Virus record (IMG/VR): IMGVR_UViG_2579778529_000009
Coordinates: 1 to 31,614 of that record
DNA from: a virus
Taxonomy: Duplodnaviria > Heunggongvirae > Uroviricota > Caudoviricetes
Reading direction: 5' to 3' (one strand)
DNA: 31,614 nucleotides
In this document: positions 4,414 to 30,140 of the stretch, one piece after another
Layout: each line of letters begins with the position of its first letter
How positions within the stretch are numbered: position 1 is the first letter of the stretch
Translations under genes and position numbers: made by a program
Notes under the pieces: generated by a model
The model's database searches: none
The model's input: the letters and a program-made list of their open reading frames with translations, nothing else
What the model was told of the DNA's origin: nothing

Positions 4414-4433
4414 AAATGATGAGTATCGTCCTG

Positions 4434-5177
4434 TTAACCTGCGGCGCTGACAGCCACCGCAGCCACTGCCACAAAATCGCCGTCAGAAGTCATGCCCACA
4501 ATGCTGACACTGCCCTGCTTCACGCCTTTCACCGTGGCCACAAGCCCGTTCAGGGTCACCGTGGCAGTCTGTGGATCTGTCGAATGCACACTGATCGCTT
4601 TGTCACTGGCTCCGTCAGGTTTTACTGTAAAGGTCAGCGTGGTGGTTGCTCCCACTTTTACACTGGCAGATGCCGGTGATACTGTCAGCCCGGTAACGCT
4701 CACGGTTTCAGTGCCTTCCTCTGCCAGATACGGACGCCCCACACCGCTGATTTTCACTGTGCGGGTCATCACGTCTTTTGAGGCAATGGTTTTACCCAGT
4801 GAGCTCAGCCAGCCACGGAAAACATCAACAGTGCCGTTGGGATATTTGATACGAAACGCGCAGACTTCACCGGAGTCGAACAACTGAACCAGTTTTTTCT
4901 GCCCGCTGTCACCCGGACGCCAGGCCAGCGTCGCCGAAGTATCACCGACGGATTTCTGCCCCTGGGTTGTCGTTTTCCAGTCTGCATCTTCATCATCGAG
5001 ATAAGTGTCATCTTCTGCATCAGCGGTCATTTCGCCAGGTTGCAGATCCTTCACCATCGCAAGACGCAGCCAGTCAGTGTCCGATAAAGGGTTCGCAAAC
5101 GCATCGCCCTTGCCGGTGTACATCCAGAACGTCGTTCCCGCACCTTTCGTTTTTGCCAGTGGATTTGGTGTGGTCAT
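4434..5177 (-). CDS. V: Major tail protein V with C-terminal Ig-like domain
   Basis: From ATG 5177: MTTPNPLAKTKGAGTTFWMY...LSDTDWLRLA...YLDDEDADW...FRGW matches recalled lambda gpV; C-terminal Thr/Val-rich beta segment typical of Ig-like domain; GGAGG upstream. Confidence 0.9.
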   Translation of the reverse strand: MTTPNPLAKTKGAGTTFWMYTGKGDAFANPLSDTDWLRLAMVKDLQPGEMTADAEDDTYLDDEDADWKTTTQGQKSVGDTSATLAWRPGDSGQKKLVQLFDSGEVCAFRIKYPNGTVDVFRGWLSSLGKTIASKDVMTRTVKISGVGRPYLAEEGTETVSVTGLTVSPASASVKVGATTTLTFTVKPDGASDKAISVHSTDPQTATVTLNGLVATVKGVKQGSVSIVGMTSDGDFVAVAAVAVSAAG

Positions 5178-12752: not shown

Positions 12753-12804
12753 ATTTAAGAAATATATTTTTTAATCTCATTTATTTTTGCAAAAGACTTT
12801 TCAT

Positions 12805-13380
12805 ATGCAGCGTCGAGAAATAAAGAAAATTACTTATTTAATCACTTTGATTTTAACTACTCTTTTGTTTGTTTATTTTTTAAGAACACCCACCACAATC
12901 AATATGAAACAGGCGCATAAAATAAATCAACAACACCAGACAATTTTCCTTATCCGTCACGGTGAACGATGTGACAGAAGCAAAAATGCATGTCTCTCAA
13001 GCAATAAAGGAATTACCGTCAATGGTGCCATTAAAGCTCATGATTATGGAAAAATATTTAGCAATACTTTCCCGTCATTCAGCCTTTACTCCACGGATAC
13101 CATACGGACAATGCAGACAGCCTGTTTTTTCTCTGGAGGAAAAGCAGCCTCCCGGATACCGTTGGCTGCAACATGCGGACTTGATGCTGCAAAGGACATA
13201 CTCAAATTGTCATCCGATAATAAAACTACCGTTATATTCACCCATAATCATTGCCTGACACAAATAGCAAAAAAAATGAAATGGTGGAAGTTAAAGCCAG
13301 AATATCTTGAAACACTGGTTCTTCATATCGAAAACAATCGTCTCATTCTTGACGGAAAACTGACTCACGATAAAGCGTAA
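12805..13380 (+). CDS. Ais/PmrG-like histidine phosphatase (LPS core heptose(II)-phosphate phosphatase homologue) with N-terminal signal/anchor; lysogenic-conversion cargo
   Basis: RHGERCDRS (RHG catalytic motif of histidine phosphatase superfamily), CLSSNKGITV, LYSTDTIRT, VIFTHNHCL, KPEYLETLVLHIE...LDG all parallel recalled E. coli Ais; hydrophobic N-terminus; AT-rich; opposite strand to late genes in the bor-equivalent slot. Confidence 0.75.
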   Translation: MQRREIKKITYLITLILTTLLFVYFLRTPTTINMKQAHKINQQHQTIFLIRHGERCDRSKNACLSSNKGITVNGAIKAHDYGKIFSNTFPSFSLYSTDTIRTMQTACFFSGGKAASRIPLAATCGLDAAKDILKLSSDNKTTVIFTHNHCLTQIAKKMKWWKLKPEYLETLVLHIENNRLILDGKLTHDKA

Positions 13381-13451: not shown

Positions 13452-13829
13452 TTATCGCCTCAACTGAAAATGCGGTCCGTCTTTCAGGCTGGTCCACTCC
13501 CCGCCCCATTCGATGGCAGTTCCCAGCTCTGCGGCAGCCTGCTTAAATGCCTGCGCGATTTTCTCGTACAGAGGCCAGTCCCATGACACCTGGCTGCCAA
13601 CCCAGGCCACAACATCCACCGCATCACCGGTCAGGTGGCGGCTGTTCATGGTCTGGCTCTTGCCTTCTGCAACCAGCTGTTTCTGGCGTTCTTTCGTGCG
13701 CAGGCCTTCCGTAATACCGAAATCAACCTCCGTCAGCTCCAGCGCACGGCGAACGACAGCAACCAGCTGTGGTTTAACGCCCTCCAGATTTTTCTCGCTC
13801 CGACGACTGAATCTGAATTTACCCGACAT
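13452..13829 (-). CDS. Endolysin, peptidase M15 (zinc D-Ala-D-Ala carboxypeptidase-like) family
   Basis: SRHLTGDAVDV (H-x6-D) and C-terminal GPHFQL His typical of M15 endolysins; GAGGTG upstream of ATG 13829; follows holin genes. Confidence 0.8.
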   Translation of the reverse strand: MSGKFRFSRRSEKNLEGVKPQLVAVVRRALELTEVDFGITEGLRTKERQKQLVAEGKSQTMNSRHLTGDAVDVVAWVGSQVSWDWPLYEKIAQAFKQAAAELGTAIEWGGEWTSLKDGPHFQLRR

Positions 13830-13831
13830 AT

Positions 13832-14107
13832 TCACCTCAACAATGGAAAGATTTTTGTGACGTTCCCGCGTGCGCGTATCACCAGCACGCAGAACAGCAG
13901 ATTAAAAAACACTTCCAGCCAGCCCGTTGCTAACGGGCGACCACACAGATAGCTGAGGGGCGCAAAGGCATACAGCAGCATCAGCAGCCAGGCCAGCCAT
14001 GACATCAGCGGTTTGTGCGTGGCATCTTTTCGGCGATAAAAAAAGAACGTCAGCACGATAACCGTGCATAACGCCACATTCAGCAATCCGGGAAGGTTAC
14101 TTAACAT
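13832..14107 (-). CDS. Small membrane protein in lysis cassette (holin/antiholin-like)
   Basis: 91 aa, 2-3 hydrophobic helices, between holin candidate and endolysin; start overlaps upstream gene. Confidence 0.45.
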   Translation of the reverse strand: MLSNLPGLLNVALCTVIVLTFFFYRRKDATHKPLMSWLAWLLMLLYAFAPLSYLCGRPLATGWLEVFFNLLFCVLVIRARGNVTKIFPLLR

Positions 14108-14489
14108 TGCCGCCTCCTCCGCCCCTCAGGCGGGAGAACAGGCCGGACACCAGTGATGCGATATCCTGCTGGTGGATGAATGACAGAATCTTCACTGACA
14201 CCACCGATACCAGCACCGCACACAGCGCATCTGCCGATGTACCGTCATACCCTGTTTTTGATGTAATCCAGGCTGACAGTACACGTGCTCCCAGCACGCC
14301 GACGATAAACGACACCAGAAAATGCGCCGCCACACGCCAGGCGGAAATCTTCTGCGGCACAGTTGCCACAAACAAAGCCCCCGCGAACGCACCAAACACA
14401 ATCCCGAAATCCGTTCCGGTGAACAGCCCGAATACCGTCGCCCCTCCGAGCGCAGCCGCCGTGCCGGAACCGGATAAGGGTTCAGACAT
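14097..14489 (-). CDS. Putative holin
   Basis: 130 aa with about 3 predicted TM segments and charged C-terminus; first gene of lysis cassette; AGGAG upstream. Confidence 0.5.
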   Translation of the reverse strand: MSEPLSGSGTAAALGGATVFGLFTGTDFGIVFGAFAGALFVATVPQKISAWRVAAHFLVSFIVGVLGARVLSAWITSKTGYDGTSADALCAVLVSVVSVKILSFIHQQDIASLVSGLFSRLRGGGGGNVK

Positions 14490-14506
14490 ACTTTTTTCTC
14501 CTGTAA

Positions 14507-14530
14507 ATAAAAAAGGGCCACCAGCGGCCC
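14507..14530 (-). terminator. Intrinsic terminator immediately upstream of holin RBS (candidate tR-prime-like site)
   Basis: Minus-strand GGGCC-N6-GGCCC hairpin followed by UUUUUU, about 18 nt before the holin Shine-Dalgarno. Confidence 0.45.
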
Positions 14531-14658
14531 GTAAAAAAACAACACCCCGTCAAAGGCACCCGCAGATACCTTTTGTGTGGTGTATTCAGATTTGACATAC
14601 GCTGAGCAGGGCGAAGAAATGAAAAAGGCCCGCAGTAGCGAGCCATGAAGAAACTGAA

Positions 14659-14685
14659 TAAAAAAAACCGCCTGGTACGGCGGTT
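14659..14685 (-). terminator. Intrinsic terminator downstream of tRNA-Gly
   Basis: Minus-strand AACCGCC-GUACCA-GGCGGUU hairpin followed by 7-8 U. Confidence 0.6.
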
Positions 14686-14947
14686 AAGATGAATTTCCAG
14701 GTTTTGCTTAATACGTGATTAATCTCAACGTTTTTTATAGATGTTAACAACATCGGAATGATGCATCACCGGCCCTGTCAGGAAATACAAAATCTCCACC
14801 GATAATGCACCATTACGCTGTTGTAAAAAGACAGCACTGGACTGTAACCGATATCACGTATTACAGAACAGGATGTGGATAAAGATTCAGGAAAACATCC
14901 CACATATAATATGTCAGTGCCCAAAACAACTTGGTATCGTCTACTGC

Positions 14948-15022
<75 letters not shown>

Positions 15023-15439
15023 ATACTATGCGGTCTTCAGTAATCACACGAATTACCGTGAAAGCCAGCACTGGTCTTTCCGACGGTAGTAACACCCCTG
15101 TGAACACCAAAATAACCGTCTTCCAGACCGACGAGAATACTAACGACATTTTTTCAGATATCAAAAATATATTTTGTTTTTAGTTTTTAATATATGTATG
15201 CATCTGTATCAGAAATATACAATTTATATCATTACTAAATTAAAAACATTTCTCTGACGTCTGATTAAAACGTTCCTGTTCCAGTTCCGCGCCAATCACA
15301 CATGGTCATTGCGTTTTACCAGTCCATCGCCACTATCAGGCTGACCAGGGGACGCCCCACCCGAACTGCTGAGAATGCCAGGCACACAAAGAATAATGCC
15401 CGCCAAAGCGTTCCTGCATACAATGACTGCAAAATTCAG

Positions 15440-16183
15440 TTATTCTTGAGCGGAGCCAGAACTCATCTCACTGAATGCAGCCATCCTGTAACCTTCCGGG
15501 GTGACCCCAAAATAACGCCTGAATACACTGATAAAATAAGATGTATTATTATAGCCACACTGCACAGCGATTCTGTTGATGGCACAGCTATATTGATGCA
15601 ACAGCATTGCTGCCATTCTCATTCTCTCCGTAAGCAACAACTCACTGAAACATGTGCCTTCTTCTTTCAGTCTTTTTTTTAACAAACTTTCACTCATACA
15701 TAACCGTGATGACACATCTCGCAGAGTCCAGTTTGCTGCAATGTCTGTATGAAACAACGCACCAAGCCTGCCGCTGATAGTACTGATACACGCGGTCATA
15801 AACGACGAAAACATTTTATCTGATGAAAAAAACGCCAGACACGAAAAGGAAAGCATTTCCGCTAAATTGTCCGTATGAATCTTTTCCTCATAAAGATAAT
15901 CAATCAGGATGCCCATCAATTCTGGCCTGGGAAAACTCATGCAAAGATATCGTGGCATTTTCCGGACTAAAACAACATCCTGTTTTACCCCACTACGCAA
16001 CAGGTAACGGCTAATTGTCGATTCACTGAGACTTATACGCCGAAAACATTCAGAAAAGGGCAATAACGGTCCAGCCCCTCCCCTGACAAGAAGTGCACTA
16101 CCACTTTCCAGAGAGAGTACTTTTCCTTCGAAGAGCACAACAAACGGGGAATGAACAAAAATAACAGAACAGGCCTCATTCAT
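15440..16183 (-). CDS. AraC-family transcriptional regulator (GadX/YdeO/AppY-like), prophage cargo
   Basis: C-terminal AraC-type double HTH (WTLRDVSSRLCMSESLLKKRLKEE...INRIAVQCGYNNTSYFISVFRRYFGVTP); ATG 16183 with AGGGA upstream (track ORF extends to 16291); AT-rich. Confidence 0.8.
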   Translation of the reverse strand: MNEACSVIFVHSPFVVLFEGKVLSLESGSALLVRGGAGPLLPFSECFRRISLSESTISRYLLRSGVKQDVVLVRKMPRYLCMSFPRPELMGILIDYLYEEKIHTDNLAEMLSFSCLAFFSSDKMFSSFMTACISTISGRLGALFHTDIAANWTLRDVSSRLCMSESLLKKRLKEEGTCFSELLLTERMRMAAMLLHQYSCAINRIAVQCGYNNTSYFISVFRRYFGVTPEGYRMAAFSEMSSGSAQE

Positions 16184-16460
16184 ATCAATATCCCTGACAT
16201 TACTGGTCGCAAGATAAGTATATATCACTTTACAAAAATGCAAGCCGTGAGCCCCGAATTCACGACCACCAGCGTGTTTACTGTACTGCACCAGGTTTAC
16301 AGGTACAAAAAACCGCTCGACGGCGGGTTTAAGCTGTGTGGCGAAGTAACCACTCTTAACAGATTAAGATAAAATTTGCGGACCGCGGTAATTTTTTTTG
16401 CTAAATTAAAGCCATATAAAAAAAGATCCATAAGAAATTATTAGTATACTAAGGTTTAAC

Positions 16461-17402
16461 ATGGCTACTATTGCGCAATCAAAGAAACAAAAAAAACTTA
16501 AAATTGGTTTTTACACCAGCAGTTCTGGGACTATCCGCAGCCATTCAGTTGCTAAGCAAGCAATTGAAAATCTGTATAATACTTGCGTAACCGTTACGAA
16601 TAATCATTTTGATACCATCTATAGAAATAAAAAGTTAAAAATAGCTTTTATAAATAAAGATACAAAAGCTAAATATTTCTTCGGCTACATGTCATGCTCA
16701 CGAGAAGAGTATCTCCTTCCTTATATTGGTGATGAATACTGGAATGAGCACAACATACCACTAGATGATAAAAAATACATAGTCGAAAGAACCTATTTTT
16801 TATATTATTACGATAGTGATATTTTAATATTAACTCAAAATCATCTTGGGCCGAAAGAATCGGATTTAGCTTATCTGCTTTACAGCCAGAGTGGTAATCC
16901 TGGAAATAACTTTTCATTCCAAGCCATCTGGAAAAAAGAGAGCGTCAAAGAGCTACTTGAAACAGGAAGTACTTTGAGAAGTTGTGATATTGTCCTGGCT
17001 GCTCCCAGGAACTTTGATGCAACAAATTACCAGCTAAATAGTTCATTTTCTAAGGAACTGGTAAATATGATGGTAGGGCTGGGTGGAACACGTCTCAAGT
17101 TAAATCTAAGGGGACGTGCATCAGGGAGAGTAAAAGTCAAAGGTTATTTATCAGATCTCGTTAAGGATGGTATTAAAGAACTCCTTGAAAAAATGCCGGG
17201 AATTGTAAAAAAAGCGGCAGTAACACAGCCCAAAAATACCGTTGAACAAAGTCTTCTTGATCAGGTACTCATTTCAGAAAAAAACATATATACCGTTAAT
17301 GGTTATGGCACTGATAGTGATGTTCTGCAAGCCATGATTTCTGCTAAAATTGATAACAATGAATACCTTAAGCAATACGATATCAGCAAAAAGAAGGTAT
17401 AG
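16461..17402 (+). CDS. Hypothetical 313-aa soluble protein; candidate RexA-like sensor component of a two-gene abortive-infection/exclusion module
   Basis: AT-rich; AAGG RBS 6 nt upstream; N-terminal KIGFYTSSSG and internal LGPKESDLAYLL resemble recalled lambda RexA motifs (GFYATYRS, GPTTSDLTDFL); 3-nt gap to downstream membrane gene. Confidence 0.5.
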   Translation: MATIAQSKKQKKLKIGFYTSSSGTIRSHSVAKQAIENLYNTCVTVTNNHFDTIYRNKKLKIAFINKDTKAKYFFGYMSCSREEYLLPYIGDEYWNEHNIPLDDKKYIVERTYFLYYYDSDILILTQNHLGPKESDLAYLLYSQSGNPGNNFSFQAIWKKESVKELLETGSTLRSCDIVLAAPRNFDATNYQLNSSFSKELVNMMVGLGGTRLKLNLRGRASGRVKVKGYLSDLVKDGIKELLEKMPGIVKKAAVTQPKNTVEQSLLDQVLISEKNIYTVNGYGTDSDVLQAMISAKIDNNEYLKQYDISKKKV

Positions 17403-17405
17403 GAT

Positions 17406-17849
17406 ATGTTATTGAAATACTTAAGAAACCTGATTGTAAGTGTTTTTTGCACCTTGTTCCTACTGAGGTATATCCCTCAGATGGGGCATGCTGACATACT
17501 TACAGCCTCCGGGGTTATTTCAACTGTATCCGGTATTTTATTTGGTTTTATTTTAGCCACAATATCAATTTTTAGTGCTGCTAGCGAAAACTCAAATGGA
17601 ATAATAAAAGCATTAAAAAACAACAACATACTTCAATTTATTATTGTAAATCTATTAACCGCAGGTGCATCTTTAATTACGGCATGCGTTATTGCTTTGA
17701 TAGCAATGTTTGCCAATGAAAAGACATTGTTACATGGAGAAAAAATAGAATTTATTTTAATTATCGAATCTTTATCTCTTCTTATCATTTCAGTAATAAC
17801 TTTTGCCTTTACATGGAGAAAAGTAAACTGGATACTCCCCCACATTTAA
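17406..17849 (+). CDS. 147-aa four-helix membrane protein; candidate RexB-like effector
   Basis: Four hydrophobic segments (about 8-20, 33-58, 75-102, 117-137); LFLLRYIPQ resembles recalled lambda RexB LLFRHYIPG; size matches RexB (144 aa); translationally coupled to upstream gene. Confidence 0.5.
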   Translation: MLLKYLRNLIVSVFCTLFLLRYIPQMGHADILTASGVISTVSGILFGFILATISIFSAASENSNGIIKALKNNNILQFIIVNLLTAGASLITACVIALIAMFANEKTLLHGEKIEFILIIESLSLLIISVITFAFTWRKVNWILPHI

Positions 17850-17872
17850 AAAGGGCAGAAATGCCCTTTTTT
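17850..17872. terminator. Bidirectional intrinsic terminator between convergent Rex-like operon and Q
   Basis: AAAGGGCA-GAAA-TGCCCTTT hairpin flanked by A-run on one side and T-run on the other, between stop 17849 (+) and stop 17873 (-). Confidence 0.6.
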
Positions 17873-18235
17873 CTACTCCATTTCAAGTTTAACATCCAGC
17901 ATTGAAAGGCATCCATCAATAAACCCTTCAGCCATCTGTATCTCTATACGTATCAATTTCTCATCTTTTTTGCGAGCTCTTGCAAGCTTTCTTTTCGAGA
18001 TGCCATACAGGTAATGGGCCACAATCAAAGAATGCTCGTACGGTTTTCGCTTTTTAAGAAGAGCAAGACAACCTTCAATAATTAATGCATCACTATCTGA
18101 ACAAGCCTGACGTGTTTTGCTTGTATAGGGAAGAAGCCCTTTAAACCCAGCAGCTATAGGAGAATAGTCTACTCCTGAACTATCACTCGCCGCCCATGCT
18201 CCCCAACGATCCAGAACCATTTGAATATCACGCAT
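17873..18235 (-). CDS. Late-gene antiterminator Q (QuuD-like family)
   Basis: MRDIQMVLDRWGAWAA...IAAGFKGL...IIEGCLALLKK...QMAEGFIDGCLSMLDVKLEME closely parallels recalled E. coli K-12 QuuD; start taken at internal ATG 18235. Confidence 0.85.
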   Translation of the reverse strand: MRDIQMVLDRWGAWAASDSSGVDYSPIAAGFKGLLPYTSKTRQACSDSDALIIEGCLALLKKRKPYEHSLIVAHYLYGISKRKLARARKKDEKLIRIEIQMAEGFIDGCLSMLDVKLEME

Positions 18236-18252
18236 CAACTTTCTCCACAAAA

Positions 18253-19248
18253 TCAGGCCAGCACGCCAGTTGCCAGCGCACGATCGATAAAACGAAATAT
18301 CAGCTCCAGCTGGGAGCCATACCTCTCTTCAAATGCCACGGTATCCGCATGCAGCTCGTCGTGATGCTTTCTGCACAAAGGCAACACAAAAAGGTCATGC
18401 GCTTTTGTTCCCATTCCACCCTGACCGTAACCTATCAGGTGGTGGGGATCATCAGCGGGCTTTCCACAACATGCACACGGCTGTGTCTTAACCCAGCGCG
18501 TGTACTTTTCATTAACCCAGCGGCGACGTTTTGGGCGTAACATAAAAGACTCCGGCGACTCCGGATCCACTTTCAGCGCCAGCACCTTTTTCGCCTTATC
18601 CTGGATGATGCTGGTGGCAGGAACCGAAGGCACAAGGTCACTTTCCCGGGTGACAGACGGCACAACAGGCTTCGGTAATCTCAGTGCCTTACGGGCTGCA
18701 CTTTCCGGTAAGGCATCCGCCAGGTCATTACGAATCAGCCACCAGCACAGTTCCGGCATTGTCACAACGTGACTGTCATCAAAACCGAGATCCCGACGCA
18801 CAACAGACAACACCCAGCGGGCACAGTTATCCGTTGCCATTGATTCCAGCCGTTCCGTGAACTGATCGCGCAGCTGGTTATCGCAGTGCCAGCACAGACG
18901 GATTGCACCCGGAGCGTGTCGCATTGTGGTCATGTTCTCGCTGTGCCAGTCGGAATGAGGCCACTGGCAGCCTTTTTTACGAAGTAACCAGCTTTCAAGA
19001 CATTCCACGCCACCAGCACGACGGATCACTGCCTCATTGCGGAACACGGCCCGAACGGCAGGATCATCCGCCAGCGGTTGTGACGCCGCGGGAACGGCAC
19101 CACTGGCGAAAGATGAATAATGCTCCGGCTCAGGCTCCAGCAGGACACGCCCCTGCATAAACAGGGGCATCAGCTCTGAACCGGGCCTGAACAATACGAT
19201 CCCCATACGCGGGGCAATTTCAGGGGTCAGTAGTGCTCTCACGGTCAC
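18253..19248 (-). CDS. DUF968-family protein with C-terminal Cys/His (HNH-like) motif
   Basis: 331 aa; C-terminal CACCGK...DPHHL...CRKHHDELH; typical nin-region gene upstream of Q in lambdoid prophages. Confidence 0.55.
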   Translation of the reverse strand: MTVRALLTPEIAPRMGIVLFRPGSELMPLFMQGRVLLEPEPEHYSSFASGAVPAASQPLADDPAVRAVFRNEAVIRRAGGVECLESWLLRKKGCQWPHSDWHSENMTTMRHAPGAIRLCWHCDNQLRDQFTERLESMATDNCARWVLSVVRRDLGFDDSHVVTMPELCWWLIRNDLADALPESAARKALRLPKPVVPSVTRESDLVPSVPATSIIQDKAKKVLALKVDPESPESFMLRPKRRRWVNEKYTRWVKTQPCACCGKPADDPHHLIGYGQGGMGTKAHDLFVLPLCRKHHDELHADTVAFEERYGSQLELIFRFIDRALATGVLA

Positions 19249-20779: not shown

Positions 20780-21429
20780 GCCGCCATCTCCCTGACCAGC
20801 TTTTCCGCCTGCAGGCGAACCTGCGCCAGAAACGCCTCACCACATGCCTCAAGTTCATCGCGCCCGATGTAGCTGATTGCCGGTCCCTTCCAGGTCTTGT
20901 CGAAAACAGCAATAGCACCAGCGAAGAAAGCGCCTGTCGGCACCTGCTTCTCATCCTTCGGGATAAACCAGGCAGGCAGTTCAAAACCAATACGCCCGCG
21001 AATAAAAGCAATATGATCTGCATCTTCCGGCCACCACACTTCGCTGGTGGCAGCTTTGATCAGGAAAACATAGCGCCCGCCCTTATCACGCATGGCACTG
21101 GCATGCTTCATGATGTAACGCATGCCGGTGATGTATTGCCCCTCATGCTGACTGGCGCGGCTGTATGGGGGATTTCCAAAGGCAGCACCTTTAAGCTCCG
21201 CAAGGCGTTCTGACCAGTCATGCGCCAGCGCGTTGTCTTCCGCCGTGTAATACGCAGCACATTTGGCGTTATCACCGTCAGTGAACAGATCCAGAACAAA
21301 CGGACCAAACAGGGTGTTAATTCCCCAGAAAATGTTGTCCGGCGTGCGCCACTGATCGCCCACTTCCTTCAGTTCATGGGCTGGTTTGTTCCGCAGTTCC
21401 ACCAGCTCCTGGCAATATTTATTACTCAT
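20776..21429 (-). CDS. DNA N6-adenine methyltransferase (phage Dam-like, orphan)
   Basis: FGNPPY motif IV; about 217 aa from ATG 21429 which overlaps stop of upstream gene; no adjacent restriction enzyme. Confidence 0.8.
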   Translation of the reverse strand: MSNKYCQELVELRNKPAHELKEVGDQWRTPDNIFWGINTLFGPFVLDLFTDGDNAKCAAYYTAEDNALAHDWSERLAELKGAAFGNPPYSRASQHEGQYITGMRYIMKHASAMRDKGGRYVFLIKAATSEVWWPEDADHIAFIRGRIGFELPAWFIPKDEKQVPTGAFFAGAIAVFDKTWKGPAISYIGRDELEACGEAFLAQVRLQAEKLVREMAA

Positions 21430-21923
21430 TAAGCCCCCACGTAATTCCCTGACAGATACCACTCATCACCCGATACAGCGCGCTTGCTGCTTTTCCGTAA
21501 ACACTGCTCACGACGCGCCAGAAAATTGTTTCGTTCTGGCTGGGAGTGGCTTTCACGGAATGCCGCCATCCACACCGTTGCAGCACGACGGTATAAGCCC
21601 CTGGACTCCAGTTCTTCAGCCTGGCGGGTCAGGCATAAAATCTCCCGCGGGTCGTTAGTGCCGACATAGAAATTGCGCACAGGTCTGGTTTCACGAACTG
21701 GTTGCCGTTCCGCCTCCGGCGATATCTTTGTCTGGCGCGGGAAATGTCTGCGTGTATCCCCTTCACAACGGTGAGCCACACGCCCACTCTGACGTAACTT
21801 GCTTGCTGACTGCAGAACGCGCTGCCGTGAGTAACCTGCAAAAGCATCCGCAATGTCTCCGGAAGTACACCCCGGATGGGCTTCAATGAATTTCTGAACT
21901 TCATTCAAAAGACTCATGATCAC
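21429..21923 (-). CDS. Putative regulator with C-terminal PerC-like motif
   Basis: LESRGLYRRAATVWMAA...ARREQCLRKS resembles PerC/Pch family signature; N-terminal HTH-like segment; ATGA coupling to replication gene. Confidence 0.4.
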   Translation of the reverse strand: MIMSLLNEVQKFIEAHPGCTSGDIADAFAGYSRQRVLQSASKLRQSGRVAHRCEGDTRRHFPRQTKISPEAERQPVRETRPVRNFYVGTNDPREILCLTRQAEELESRGLYRRAATVWMAAFRESHSQPERNNFLARREQCLRKSSKRAVSGDEWYLSGNYVGA

Positions 21924-28414: not shown

Positions 28415-28445
28415 GGGAAGCAATAAGCTTCCCTTCTCTTTATTT
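28415..28445 (+). terminator. Intrinsic terminator at end of early-left operon, overlapping 3-prime end of convergent gene
   Basis: GGGAAGC-AATAA-GCTTCCC hairpin followed by TTCTCTTTATTT. Confidence 0.5.
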
Positions 28446-30140
28446 AGGTACGCTATCAACACTTTTGAGAATCGTTGATGTTAAAGGCTGCGACTTTAGT
28501 AAGTCTCGAGAAATATCCGGATCTGGTATAGCTATTTTTACTAAACTCTCAAGTTTTTCAAACCACTCCCCATCATTCATTGAGAATAAGTTATGAAGAG
28601 CTTCATTTTTATTTTTGAACCCCCAAGCCTTATAATTATTACCACAGTATTTTGACGCAGCAGTTAGAATATGCCAGCGTAATTTTGAATACTTCCCATC
28701 AAACCTCTTATTTGAGATAAGAGCCTTTAGCCTATACAAGCAATAGCAAGATATATAATAATCATCCTCGAGGGCATCGGAAGAGAAAACCTCATTAAGT
28801 AAGTCACCAGTTAACCTATTTGGATAACGACTGGAATAATCTGGTCTCATCATAACAATAGCAGCATATGCTCGCGCAACTTCTCTGATATCAAATATGC
28901 GTACTGGAGCTATACTTTCTGAACTATACTGCCCCTTTCTTCTCTCAAAATAAATTTTATTTCCTTCAATAGCACCTTTAGCATTAAAATAATGTTCTAA
29001 TTCCCTTAATTTTTTTAGCGTTGAAATGAACTGTGCATCTTCAACTTTAGATTGTCTATTCGTAGCTCGTACAATGTCATCAAGGATCGCTGGCTCATCG
29101 GTTTCAATTAATTTAATCATTAAACTAACTGATTCATCTACTTGAATGTCTTTTGATATAAGAACATTAGACGTTTGACATCCATTAACAATTTGAAAAT
29201 CTCGTATAAAAATTTCTTGCCCTGCAGGCCTCACGCTTGATGCAACTATTGTCACTCCATTATTCATTAAACCAAATCTTGCTTTTTTTCCATCAGTATC
29301 TAGTGTTCCTGCAATTTCTGAATTTACGTCACCATCAATTCCCAGAAAATCTCTAACATTTTCTTCGAATAATTTTTTTCGAGGGTTTCCATTTTTGTCT
29401 TTAAGTATAGAATCAATAAAACTACGAGCTTTGACTGTAGCTACATAGGCATTATTAATATTAGGGGCCGCTGGGAATGGAGCATAGCCTATTGTAGGAA
29501 GTTTAGCTTCTATTGGACCTTCCGCAGCAAGCCAAAGCTCATGAATCATGTCTTTGTGAGCCATAATGAAGGATGTTTCATGTGAAAACCCGAGTGACTT
29601 TAAGCTTTTTTCACCCGATGCAAATGCAGCTTTTATTTCTCTGGCCTCTGTATTTTGTGCAGCACTAAAAAAATATGCGTATAAGTCTGGAAGGCCATTT
29701 TTGACTCTGCCGATATTAGCAAATATCAAGTTGAACATTTTTTTAAAGTCCGCTAGATATTCACTGTGGGGTTGTTGTGGCGCTGGTGAAAGATAATCTC
29801 TTATTGACGCAATGTAAGAGTCTATTTCCTGTTTGCTCCACTTCTCCGATGACTTAGCTTGCGTGAATACTAATGAAACTTGAAACTCGCGACGTGAGTT
29901 TTGGAAAATCTCCTGAAGTTCTTCAGTTGAAAAAATGGCTCTGTCGTCTAAAAATAAAAATGCTCCATCAATACCAGGGTCCGGGCCTTCATACACAAGA
30001 TCACTGACCTCAACTTTGTCGCCTGAGTATTTTGAAAAAGCACAATAGTTCACAAACGCCTCAAAATTTTTGGTCTCCTCATAGGGCGCAGCGAATGCTT
30101 TGCAAAAGGCATCGAAATAAGATTTCGTGACTAAATGCAT
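28440..30140 (-). CDS. Large AT-rich orphan protein (about 566 aa); candidate abortive-infection/defence protein (AIPR-like?)
   Basis: ATG 30140 preceded by AAAGGAG; visibly lower GC than flanks; between xis-like gene and integrase, convergent with early-left operon; possible N-terminal nuclease-like acidic motif (GIDGAFLFLDD...FQVSLVFTQAK), unverified. Confidence 0.5.
   Translation of the reverse strand: MHLVTKSYFDAFCKAFAAPYEETKNFEAFVNYCAFSKYSGDKVEVSDLVYEGPDPGIDGAFLFLDDRAIFSTEELQEIFQNSRREFQVSLVFTQAKSSEKWSKQEIDSYIASIRDYLSPAPQQPHSEYLADFKKMFNLIFANIGRVKNGLPDLYAYFFSAAQNTEAREIKAAFASGEKSLKSLGFSHETSFIMAHKDMIHELWLAAEGPIEAKLPTIGYAPFPAAPNINNAYVATVKARSFIDSILKDKNGNPRKKLFEENVRDFLGIDGDVNSEIAGTLDTDGKKARFGLMNNGVTIVASSVRPAGQEIFIRDFQIVNGCQTSNVLISKDIQVDESVSLMIKLIETDEPAILDDIVRATNRQSKVEDAQFISTLKKLRELEHYFNAKGAIEGNKIYFERRKGQYSSESIAPVRIFDIREVARAYAAIVMMRPDYSSRYPNRLTGDLLNEVFSSDALEDDYYISCYCLYRLKALISNKRFDGKYSKLRWHILTAASKYCGNNYKAWGFKNKNEALHNLFSMNDGEWFEKLESLVKIAIPDPDISRDLLKSQPLTSTILKSVDSVPK

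Follow-up and report, generated by a model that had tools for sequence, protein, structure and literature searches.

Several prophages of E. coli carry genes for AraC-like regulators that connect to host circuits of acid resistance and virulence. PatE activates gadE and hdeAB, AppY directly activates gadE and its expression also affects biofilm formation and motility, and PsrA and PsrB are prophage-encoded secretion regulators of EHEC O157:H7. All of them act in lysogens on host genes, where they converge on the gadE/hdeA circuit. The DNA analysed here (31,614 nucleotides of a Caudoviricetes virus, IMG/VR record IMGVR_UViG_2579778529_000009; the window in the following) encodes a protein of this kind at 15440-16183 on the minus strand, for which a preliminary description made from the sequence alone had already named PatE and PsrA/B as points of comparison, with roles that agree with the literature. 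On the alignments and the phylogeny described below, the protein is a separate lineage of the GadW/YdeO/AppY/PatE/PsrA group, and nothing was found in the literature on this particular protein.

The AraC/XylS family is defined by a C-terminal domain of about 100 residues with two helix-turn-helix motifs, and the protein of the window has this domain. In Pfam, HTH_AraC (PF00165) matches in two stretches with 58.9 bits (cut-off 26.6) and HTH_18 (PF12833) matches with 57.5 bits (cut-off 33.6), which bears out the double helix-turn-helix that had been seen before. An AF2 model from a 47-sequence alignment has a mean pLDDT of 88.1, and its C-terminal domain superposes on GadX (3mkl) with a TM score of 0.91-0.93 and an rmsd of 1.0-1.2 A at 43-44% identity; the structures nearest to the whole model are Rns, CsvR and ToxT (Foldseek E around 1e-12). 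PHROG 1450, which has no assigned function, is matched with an E of 8e-58 over residues 4-234. Like the GadW/YdeO/AppY/PatE/PsrA subgroup, the protein falls into the range of about 240-255 residues, is alignable over the full length and begins with M-x3-CSV, and BLASTP to the subgroup gives 31-39% identity over residues 1-232/245. Full-length identities are 38-39% to PsrA (ECs_1087, Sakai Sp4), 37-39% to ECs_0287 (Sakai Sp1), about 35-36% to GadW and YdeO, 29-31% to AppY, and 26-27% to GadX and EnvY. ECs_0287 stands for PatE in these comparisons and is presumed to be its orthologue because it is the sole AraC-like gene in its Sakai prophage, Sp1, which we take to be the counterpart of EDL933 OI-8. 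The DNA-binding domain is 44-47% identical to those of this presumed PatE orthologue, PsrA and GadW. Its recognition-helix motifs SESLLKK-L-K-E and CGY--SYFI-VFR-YFG-TP are kept in the full-length alignment, the two recognition helices are nearly alike throughout the subgroup, and C5 is invariant in the subgroup alignment (A2).

Within this group, the protein is an orthologue of none of the named regulators. An orthologue should cluster with the named protein and share a high identity with it, as PsrA and PsrB do with 90%. In a neighbour-joining tree with 200 bootstraps, of the kind that the preliminary description had proposed for a comparison with the acid-resistance regulators, the protein and its relatives of 76-87% identity form a clade of their own with 100% bootstrap, and the deeper nodes have 16-23%, so that there is no supported sister. 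PatE and PsrA/B are apt for comparison, as the presumed PatE orthologue and PsrA align over the full length with 37-39% identity, but orthology is ruled out by that identity and by the separate clade; PatE and PsrA differ from each other (37% identity) roughly as much as the protein of the window differs from either. The best match in NCBIfam, the YdeO equivalog NF007407, reaches 144 bits with a cut-off of 348, and the GadX equivalog NF007432 reaches 104.2 bits with a cut-off of 500 and matches the C-terminal half only, so that neither assignment applies. The E. coli AraC-like proteins P0024 and P0042 are 52-53% identical to the protein over only about half its length, which suggests domain-level mosaicism within the regulator group.

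The reading frame has its stop end at 15440 and gives 247 residues from the ATG at 16183, and the coordinates given earlier are those of the best-supported coding sequence. For the identical gene, RefSeq has 283 residues from a GTG at 16291 in ETEC1738 and RM10740 and 315 residues in ETEC1730, and the gene is called with 247 residues in PEC41, XJ6-3 and STEC308. The 247-residue start is favoured by several observations taken together. Close homologues have 245-247 residues, and the N-terminus MNEACSVIFV aligns with MSLVCSVIFI of YdeO, MTHVCSVILI of GadW, MDYVCSVVFI of AppY and MVVVCSVIMV of PsrA, the M-x3-CSV start matching residue by residue across YdeO, GadW, AppY, ECs_0287 and PsrA. A Shine-Dalgarno sequence AGGGA, read from the sequence at 16191-16195 on the minus strand, lies 7 nt 5' of the ATG, and the stretch GACCAGTAATGTCAGGGA is unchanged in 26 unique alleles. 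The GTG at 16291 lies within DNA that is also found in phage cdtI, which has no regulator gene, and it is a GTA in the allele of 88% identity. The 283-residue start is rejected as an over-extension into shared non-coding DNA, and the inconsistent RefSeq calls are corrected here.

The inconsistent starts could also be read as signs of a decaying or silent remnant without function, and some database entries are shortened to 139-191 residues and a tail gene of the prophage is frameshifted in the reference record. Such a remnant is extremely improbable. The discrepancies between the starts are explained by over-extension into an upstream open frame, and the gene itself looks well kept: comparison of the window allele with that of XJ6-3, which is identical to it in 86% of amino acids and 91% of nucleotides, gives a dN/dS of 0.30, or 0.24 for the DNA-binding domain by itself, all 43 related IMG/VR loci have a full 247-residue match, all subgroup-invariant residues are present (alignment A2), and the fold is predicted with confidence. 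This pattern of substitutions indicates that the regulator is under purifying selection, and with its intact frame it is not the pseudogene that the preliminary description had considered as a way in which its reading could fail.

The chromosome of the porcine E. coli ETEC1738 is 100% identical to positions 14500-18300 of the window, and according to its annotated record the prophage is lambdoid, adjoins yjjG, and has its late genes on the minus strand of the window. Along this strand, a DUF968 gene (18253-19248) lies 5' of the antiterminator gene Q (17873-18250; PF06530, 175 bits), and further on there are the regulator, a tRNA-Gly(UCC) gene, two holin genes with an M15 endolysin gene (13452-14489, the holins at 14097-14489), and after these lysis genes the terminase and structural genes. 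Two genes on the plus strand lie between Q and the regulator, a DUF6731 gene of 313 codons (16461-17402) and a gene for a membrane protein of 147 residues with four transmembrane segments by eye (17406-17849). The placement of the regulator between Q and the holins, in an AT-rich island, had been recognised correctly: the GC content is 0.39 at 14490-17872, in comparison with 0.49 in the whole window and 0.54 in the structural genes.

Other parts of the prophage have cargo of their own. An AT-rich gene at 12787-13380 on the plus strand encodes a PmrG/Ais-like phosphatase of LPS core heptose(II)-phosphate, matched in NCBIfam with 205 bits (cut-off 142), and sits in the gap between endolysin and terminase, opposite in strand to both; it is found also in the RM10740 and ETEC1730 prophages and is missing in that of PEC41. 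Beside the integrase there is an AIPR-family (abortive-infection-like) gene at about 28439-30139 on the minus strand (L001 29940-31640). In the early region, the RefSeq annotation has a PerC-family transcriptional regulator at about 21428-21922 on the minus strand (L001 22929-23423), and the psr genes of EHEC are reported to co-occur with Pch regulators, which are PerC-like. The tail U gene (about 4422-4822) is the one frameshifted in the reference record, and given this frameshift the prophage may be defective.

The DNA directly upstream of the regulator resembles the start of a lambdoid late operon. A terminator scan found an intrinsic terminator, a hairpin with a U-run (AAACCCGCCGTCGAGCGGTTTTTT), at 16306-16330 on the minus strand, which is probably the tR' of a late promoter unit, and upstream of it a conserved late-leader block (16331-16391, minus strand) was recognised in alignment A1 and by BLAST to DLP12. 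Block and terminator together (16306-16390) lie directly 3' of Q in the phages 1720a-02 and PPyecE (alignment A1), and in 1720a-02 a homologous Q is directly followed by DNA homologous to about 16240-16400; in DLP12 the block is found about 120 bp upstream of essD. It carries an invariant TGTTAAGAGTGGTTACTTCGCCACACAGCTT, followed by the terminator hairpin with its U-run. Before TGTTAAGAGTGGTTACTTCGCCACACAGCTT there is a palindrome (16370-16390, minus strand) that varies with the type of Q, being GCGGTCCGC here and TACGTACGTA or ACGATCGT otherwise, which would suit a candidate Q-specific binding element. The same palindrome scores as a weak terminator on the plus strand. In regulator-bearing prophages with a long Q (250-273 residues), the sequence 5' of the terminator aligns downstream of lambda Q and keeps TAAATT/TAAGAT and AACGATGGG upstream of the terminator, which we take to be the -10 element and the pause-inducing element of lambda pR'. 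Because of its position after Q, its terminator, and these lambda-like elements in the long-Q prophages, the block at 16331-16391 is probably a late promoter, pR', that includes elements for Q loading and for pausing. For the Q type of the window, the position of pR' is deduced from conservation; convincing -35 and -10 hexamers were found neither for pR' in 16363-16400 nor for a promoter of the regulator itself.

In general, pR' is constitutive and its transcripts terminate at tR' in lysogens. The StxS paper gives general support for short RNAs between pR' and tR', with no sequence match to the leader of the regulator, and an Rfam search with E<=1 over 14300-18400 returned the tRNA only and no RNA family for leader and terminator block. 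If the block is the late promoter, Q would be separated from it by the inserted DUF6731 pair, and the regulator would be the first open reading frame of the late transcript. Predicted folds suggest that this prophage may have a leakier terminator than others. Here and in cdtI, one G is missing in the 3' arm of the tR'-like hairpin (GCGG instead of GCGGG), and the stem is bulged, whereas three other prophages have a perfect 8-bp stem; the 63-nt terminator context has -14.3 kcal/mol in comparison with -23.9 in RM10740, where a longer context adds a second 5' helix.

From the terminator to the ATG, the leader has 122 nt according to the alignments (16184-16305, minus strand). Its part at 16258-16305 is common to phages without the regulator, and 16184-16257 is specific to the regulator cassette. 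Conservation of the leader is 0.93-0.97 among the 26 unique alleles, with GATATATACTTATCTTG invariant, but this is not above the level of synonymous sites (0.966 versus 0.960) and hence does not by itself argue for a regulatory element there. A candidate -10 element TATACT of an own promoter can be read at 16217-16222 on the minus strand, with TTGCAT at 16238-16243; the TATACT is invariant across the alleles, the -35 is poor and the spacing 15 nt, and a scan for consensus sigma-70 promoters had no match in the leader.

Downstream of the regulator, the tRNA gene that had been described as adjacent is a tRNA-Gly(UCC) at 14948-15022 on the minus strand (ARAGORN; Rfam 65.6 bits), co-oriented with the regulator and 417 bp away from it. 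Its sole difference from K-12 glyT is a compensatory change in the acceptor stem, C6:G67 to U6:A67, and it accompanies only the regulator allele of about 100% identity. The surrounding DNA resembles part of an LT-IIb prophage record, with a similarity of about 82%. The Gly codons GGA and GGG make up 0.43 in the regulator and 0.39 in the structural genes, which indicates no special link between tRNA and regulator. Between the tRNA and the first holin, the scan gave three terminator-like hairpins on the minus strand (14515-14685), with a folding z of -3.7 for 14600-14700, and such a cluster would end those transcripts of the cassette that are not antiterminated. With the terminator upstream and the hairpins downstream, the regulator cassette is thus bracketed by terminators.

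Among 5426 complete E. coli genomes, about 65 were found to have the regulator. A near-identical allele together with the tRNA-Gly occurs in 23 of them (21 from pigs, one human, one of unstated source), and about 42 genomes, many from cattle or other ruminants, have an allele of about 88% DNA identity without the tRNA. A scan of GTDB species-representative genomes gave no relative, and the closest protein of a sequenced phage is 39% identical; the clade has so far been found solely in prophages of E. coli. The genomic context was compared in 43 related IMG/VR prophage loci. In every one of these, a terminator motif (CCCGC, a loop of 4-9 nt, GCGG(G), and a T-run) ends 123-124 nt 5' of the regulator ATG, in 41 a Q-type antiterminator is encoded upstream on the same strand, as judged by matches to six reference Q proteins of which several are mutually related (49-81% identity), and most have a holin downstream on the regulator strand. 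The other neighbours vary. The DUF6731 pair is found in two and the tRNA-Gly in four of the 43 loci, and the upstream neighbour is an ompC/nmpC-like porin gene in RM10740, an ORF6N pseudogene in XJ6-3, and Q itself in ETEC1730, PEC41 and STEC308; a methyltransferase is a further neighbour seen at this slot in E. coli genomes. The phages cdtI, 1720a-02 and PPyecE have related Q regions without the regulator. As an accessory gene that is variably present between Q and the lysis genes, the regulator agrees with a lambdoid late-region moron; of the promoter and terminator that a moron may have for itself, the downstream terminators are seen, and for a promoter in the leader there is the candidate TATACT, where the consensus scan gave no match. 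By this comparison of contexts, the regulator is an accessory cargo cassette that comes first in the late operon.

The constant placement behind tR' could also mean that the protein acts in lytic growth rather than in lysogeny. It would then be a factor of the phage cycle that is made only after antitermination by Q; it might, for instance, change the stress response or metabolism of the host or adjust the expression of late or lysis genes, and it would have no part in lysogenic conversion. The regulator is indeed the first open reading frame behind the terminator in 43 of 43 loci, with the fixed spacing of 123-124 nt and with Q types that match six reference proteins, it is co-oriented with tRNA and holins, and no convincing own promoter was found. 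A fixed spacing, however, may only reflect recombination at the conserved terminator block, and since cdtI, 1720a-02 and PPyecE have the same or a related Q and late region and lack the gene, the regulator is dispensable for lytic growth. The relatives PatE, PsrA/B and AppY, moreover, act in lysogens on host genes. A role confined to the phage cycle is thus a possible but unlikely reading.

The pair at 16461-17849 is indeed divergent from the regulator, as the preliminary description had it. The gap between them, given there as 170 bp, is 277 bp for the 247-residue gene and becomes 169 bp only with the GTG at 16291. The pair had been called Rex-like, and this holds for the architecture, a soluble protein of 313 residues and a membrane protein of 147, but not for homology: Pfam gave no match of the pair to RexA or RexB at E<=0.01 and no match at all for the second protein, and PADLOC gave no match for regulator or pair at E<=0.1. 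The two proteins belong to PHROG 7651 and 8552, both without assigned function. The pair is convergent with Q at a distance of 23 bp and lies between Q and the presumed late promoter, a place that in DLP12 and RM10740 is taken, in the same orientation, by an nmpC/ompC-like porin gene.

Genes of the AraC family often lie divergently next to those that they control. The head-to-head arrangement across 277 bp of AT-rich DNA invites the idea that the regulator locally controls the DUF6731/membrane-protein module by binding to the shared intergenic region and turning the module on or off. The distribution of the two makes this very unlikely. They are adjacent in just two of the 43 loci and in 14 of the about 65 E. 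coli genomes with the regulator, and these 14 are all from pigs and 99.8-100% identical in the region. The pair, in turn, occurs in 25 genomes, in 11 of which no regulator lies beside it, and one genome has regulator and pair at different loci. In phage cdtI, which is 99.7% identical to the window from position 16258 onward, the pair is present and the regulator missing, and the similarity breakpoints at 16258 and 16280-16362 lie inside the block that is common to many lambdoid phages. Breakpoints and near-identical pig genomes together fit a single recombination that joined two independent cassettes. From these comparisons, regulator and pair are independent, separately exchanged cassettes. 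The DNA between them, with the block that follows Q directly in related phages, probably serves as the late promoter/tR' unit and not simply as a control region common to both. The control of the two-gene module that had been suggested earlier is therefore disfavoured, and explaining the adjacency by a recent recombination removes a tempting but weak regulatory link.

What remains is an account in which the regulator is a moron-encoded transcription factor for host genes, and as a whole we consider this account reasonably probable. In a lysogen, RNA begun at the late promoter would be ended by the terminator (16306-16330), and the regulator would be expressed weakly or not at all, either from a poor own promoter in the leader (the candidate TATACT) or by leakage through the terminator. 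After induction, RNA polymerase modified by Q would read through, so that regulator, tRNA-Gly and lysis genes would be transcribed together and strongly. The protein would bind AT-rich promoters of the host, as do PatE, PsrA/B and AppY, and the likeliest targets would be those of the gadE/hdeAB acid-fitness regulon, with a changed stress resistance of the host in the pig gut as the result. Control of host acid-resistance genes is plausible in light of the relatives. As the regulator is orthologous to no characterised relative, this idea comes from homology only, and with 29-39% identity to the characterised regulators and no supported sister group, the target specificity is not readable from the sequence.

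A more far-reaching version would see in the clade a fifth, uncharacterised prophage lineage of GadW/YdeO-like proteins, firmly built in as the opening gene of the late operon, that is dosed by antitermination through Q and, in this phage, also by a terminator which the loss of one base has weakened, and that reprograms the host in those cells that are inducing or leaking. Host stress would in that case be reprogrammed upon late transcription and not via an ordinary lysogenic promoter; we regard this version as distinctly unlikely. The near-identical allele comes almost exclusively from pigs (21 of 23 genomes), and many of these isolates are designated ETEC; the regulator could thus influence gastric-acid survival or colonisation by strains of post-weaning diarrhoea and oedema disease.

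Among the known systems, PsrA belongs to the same group and has the same N-terminal CSV motif; its gene in Sakai Sp4 likewise lies on the late strand after Q and before the lysis genes, with the tRNA genes ileZ, argN and argO directly behind it. However, the two are in separate clades, psrA comes third in the row of genes after Q and the regulator of the window is the first open reading frame after the terminator, the tRNAs are Ile/Arg/Arg there and Gly(UCC) here, and the host is a porcine ETEC with no known link to the LEE. Related arrangements are seen in phiSTEC1575-Stx2k (L013 6512-6835), where a PsrA-like gene followed by three tRNA genes and stx2AB shares the interval from Q to the holin with a gene for an iraM-like anti-adaptor, and in Lambda_ev203, where an AraC-like gene lies just before S. 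PatE (Z0321, EDL933 OI-8), compared via ECs_0287, is also a prophage-borne AraC-like protein of 247 residues with 37-39% identity, but ECs_0287 lies beside an IS element, at the remote end of a prophage that is defective, and not behind Q, and it forms a clade with mEp332, Lambda_ev203 and P0012 at 96% bootstrap. GadW, YdeO and GadX share 40-46% identity in the DNA-binding domain, and the model fits the GadX domain at 1.0 A, but these regulators are chromosomal and that of the window is prophage-borne and accessory. AppY of DLP12 is again a prophage AraC-like regulator of the same group, with an identity of 29-31% only and with its gene near the tail-fibre end of DLP12, beside ompT. Rns, CsvR and ToxT, virulence regulators of the AraC family with two domains and solved structures, are the best full-length structural matches and match in sequence over residues 87-232, but the identity is about 20% and the two domains are oriented differently with respect to each other (rmsd about 15 A). 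The regulator is thus an unstudied lineage of a known group of prophage AraC-like proteins, in a known kind of location.
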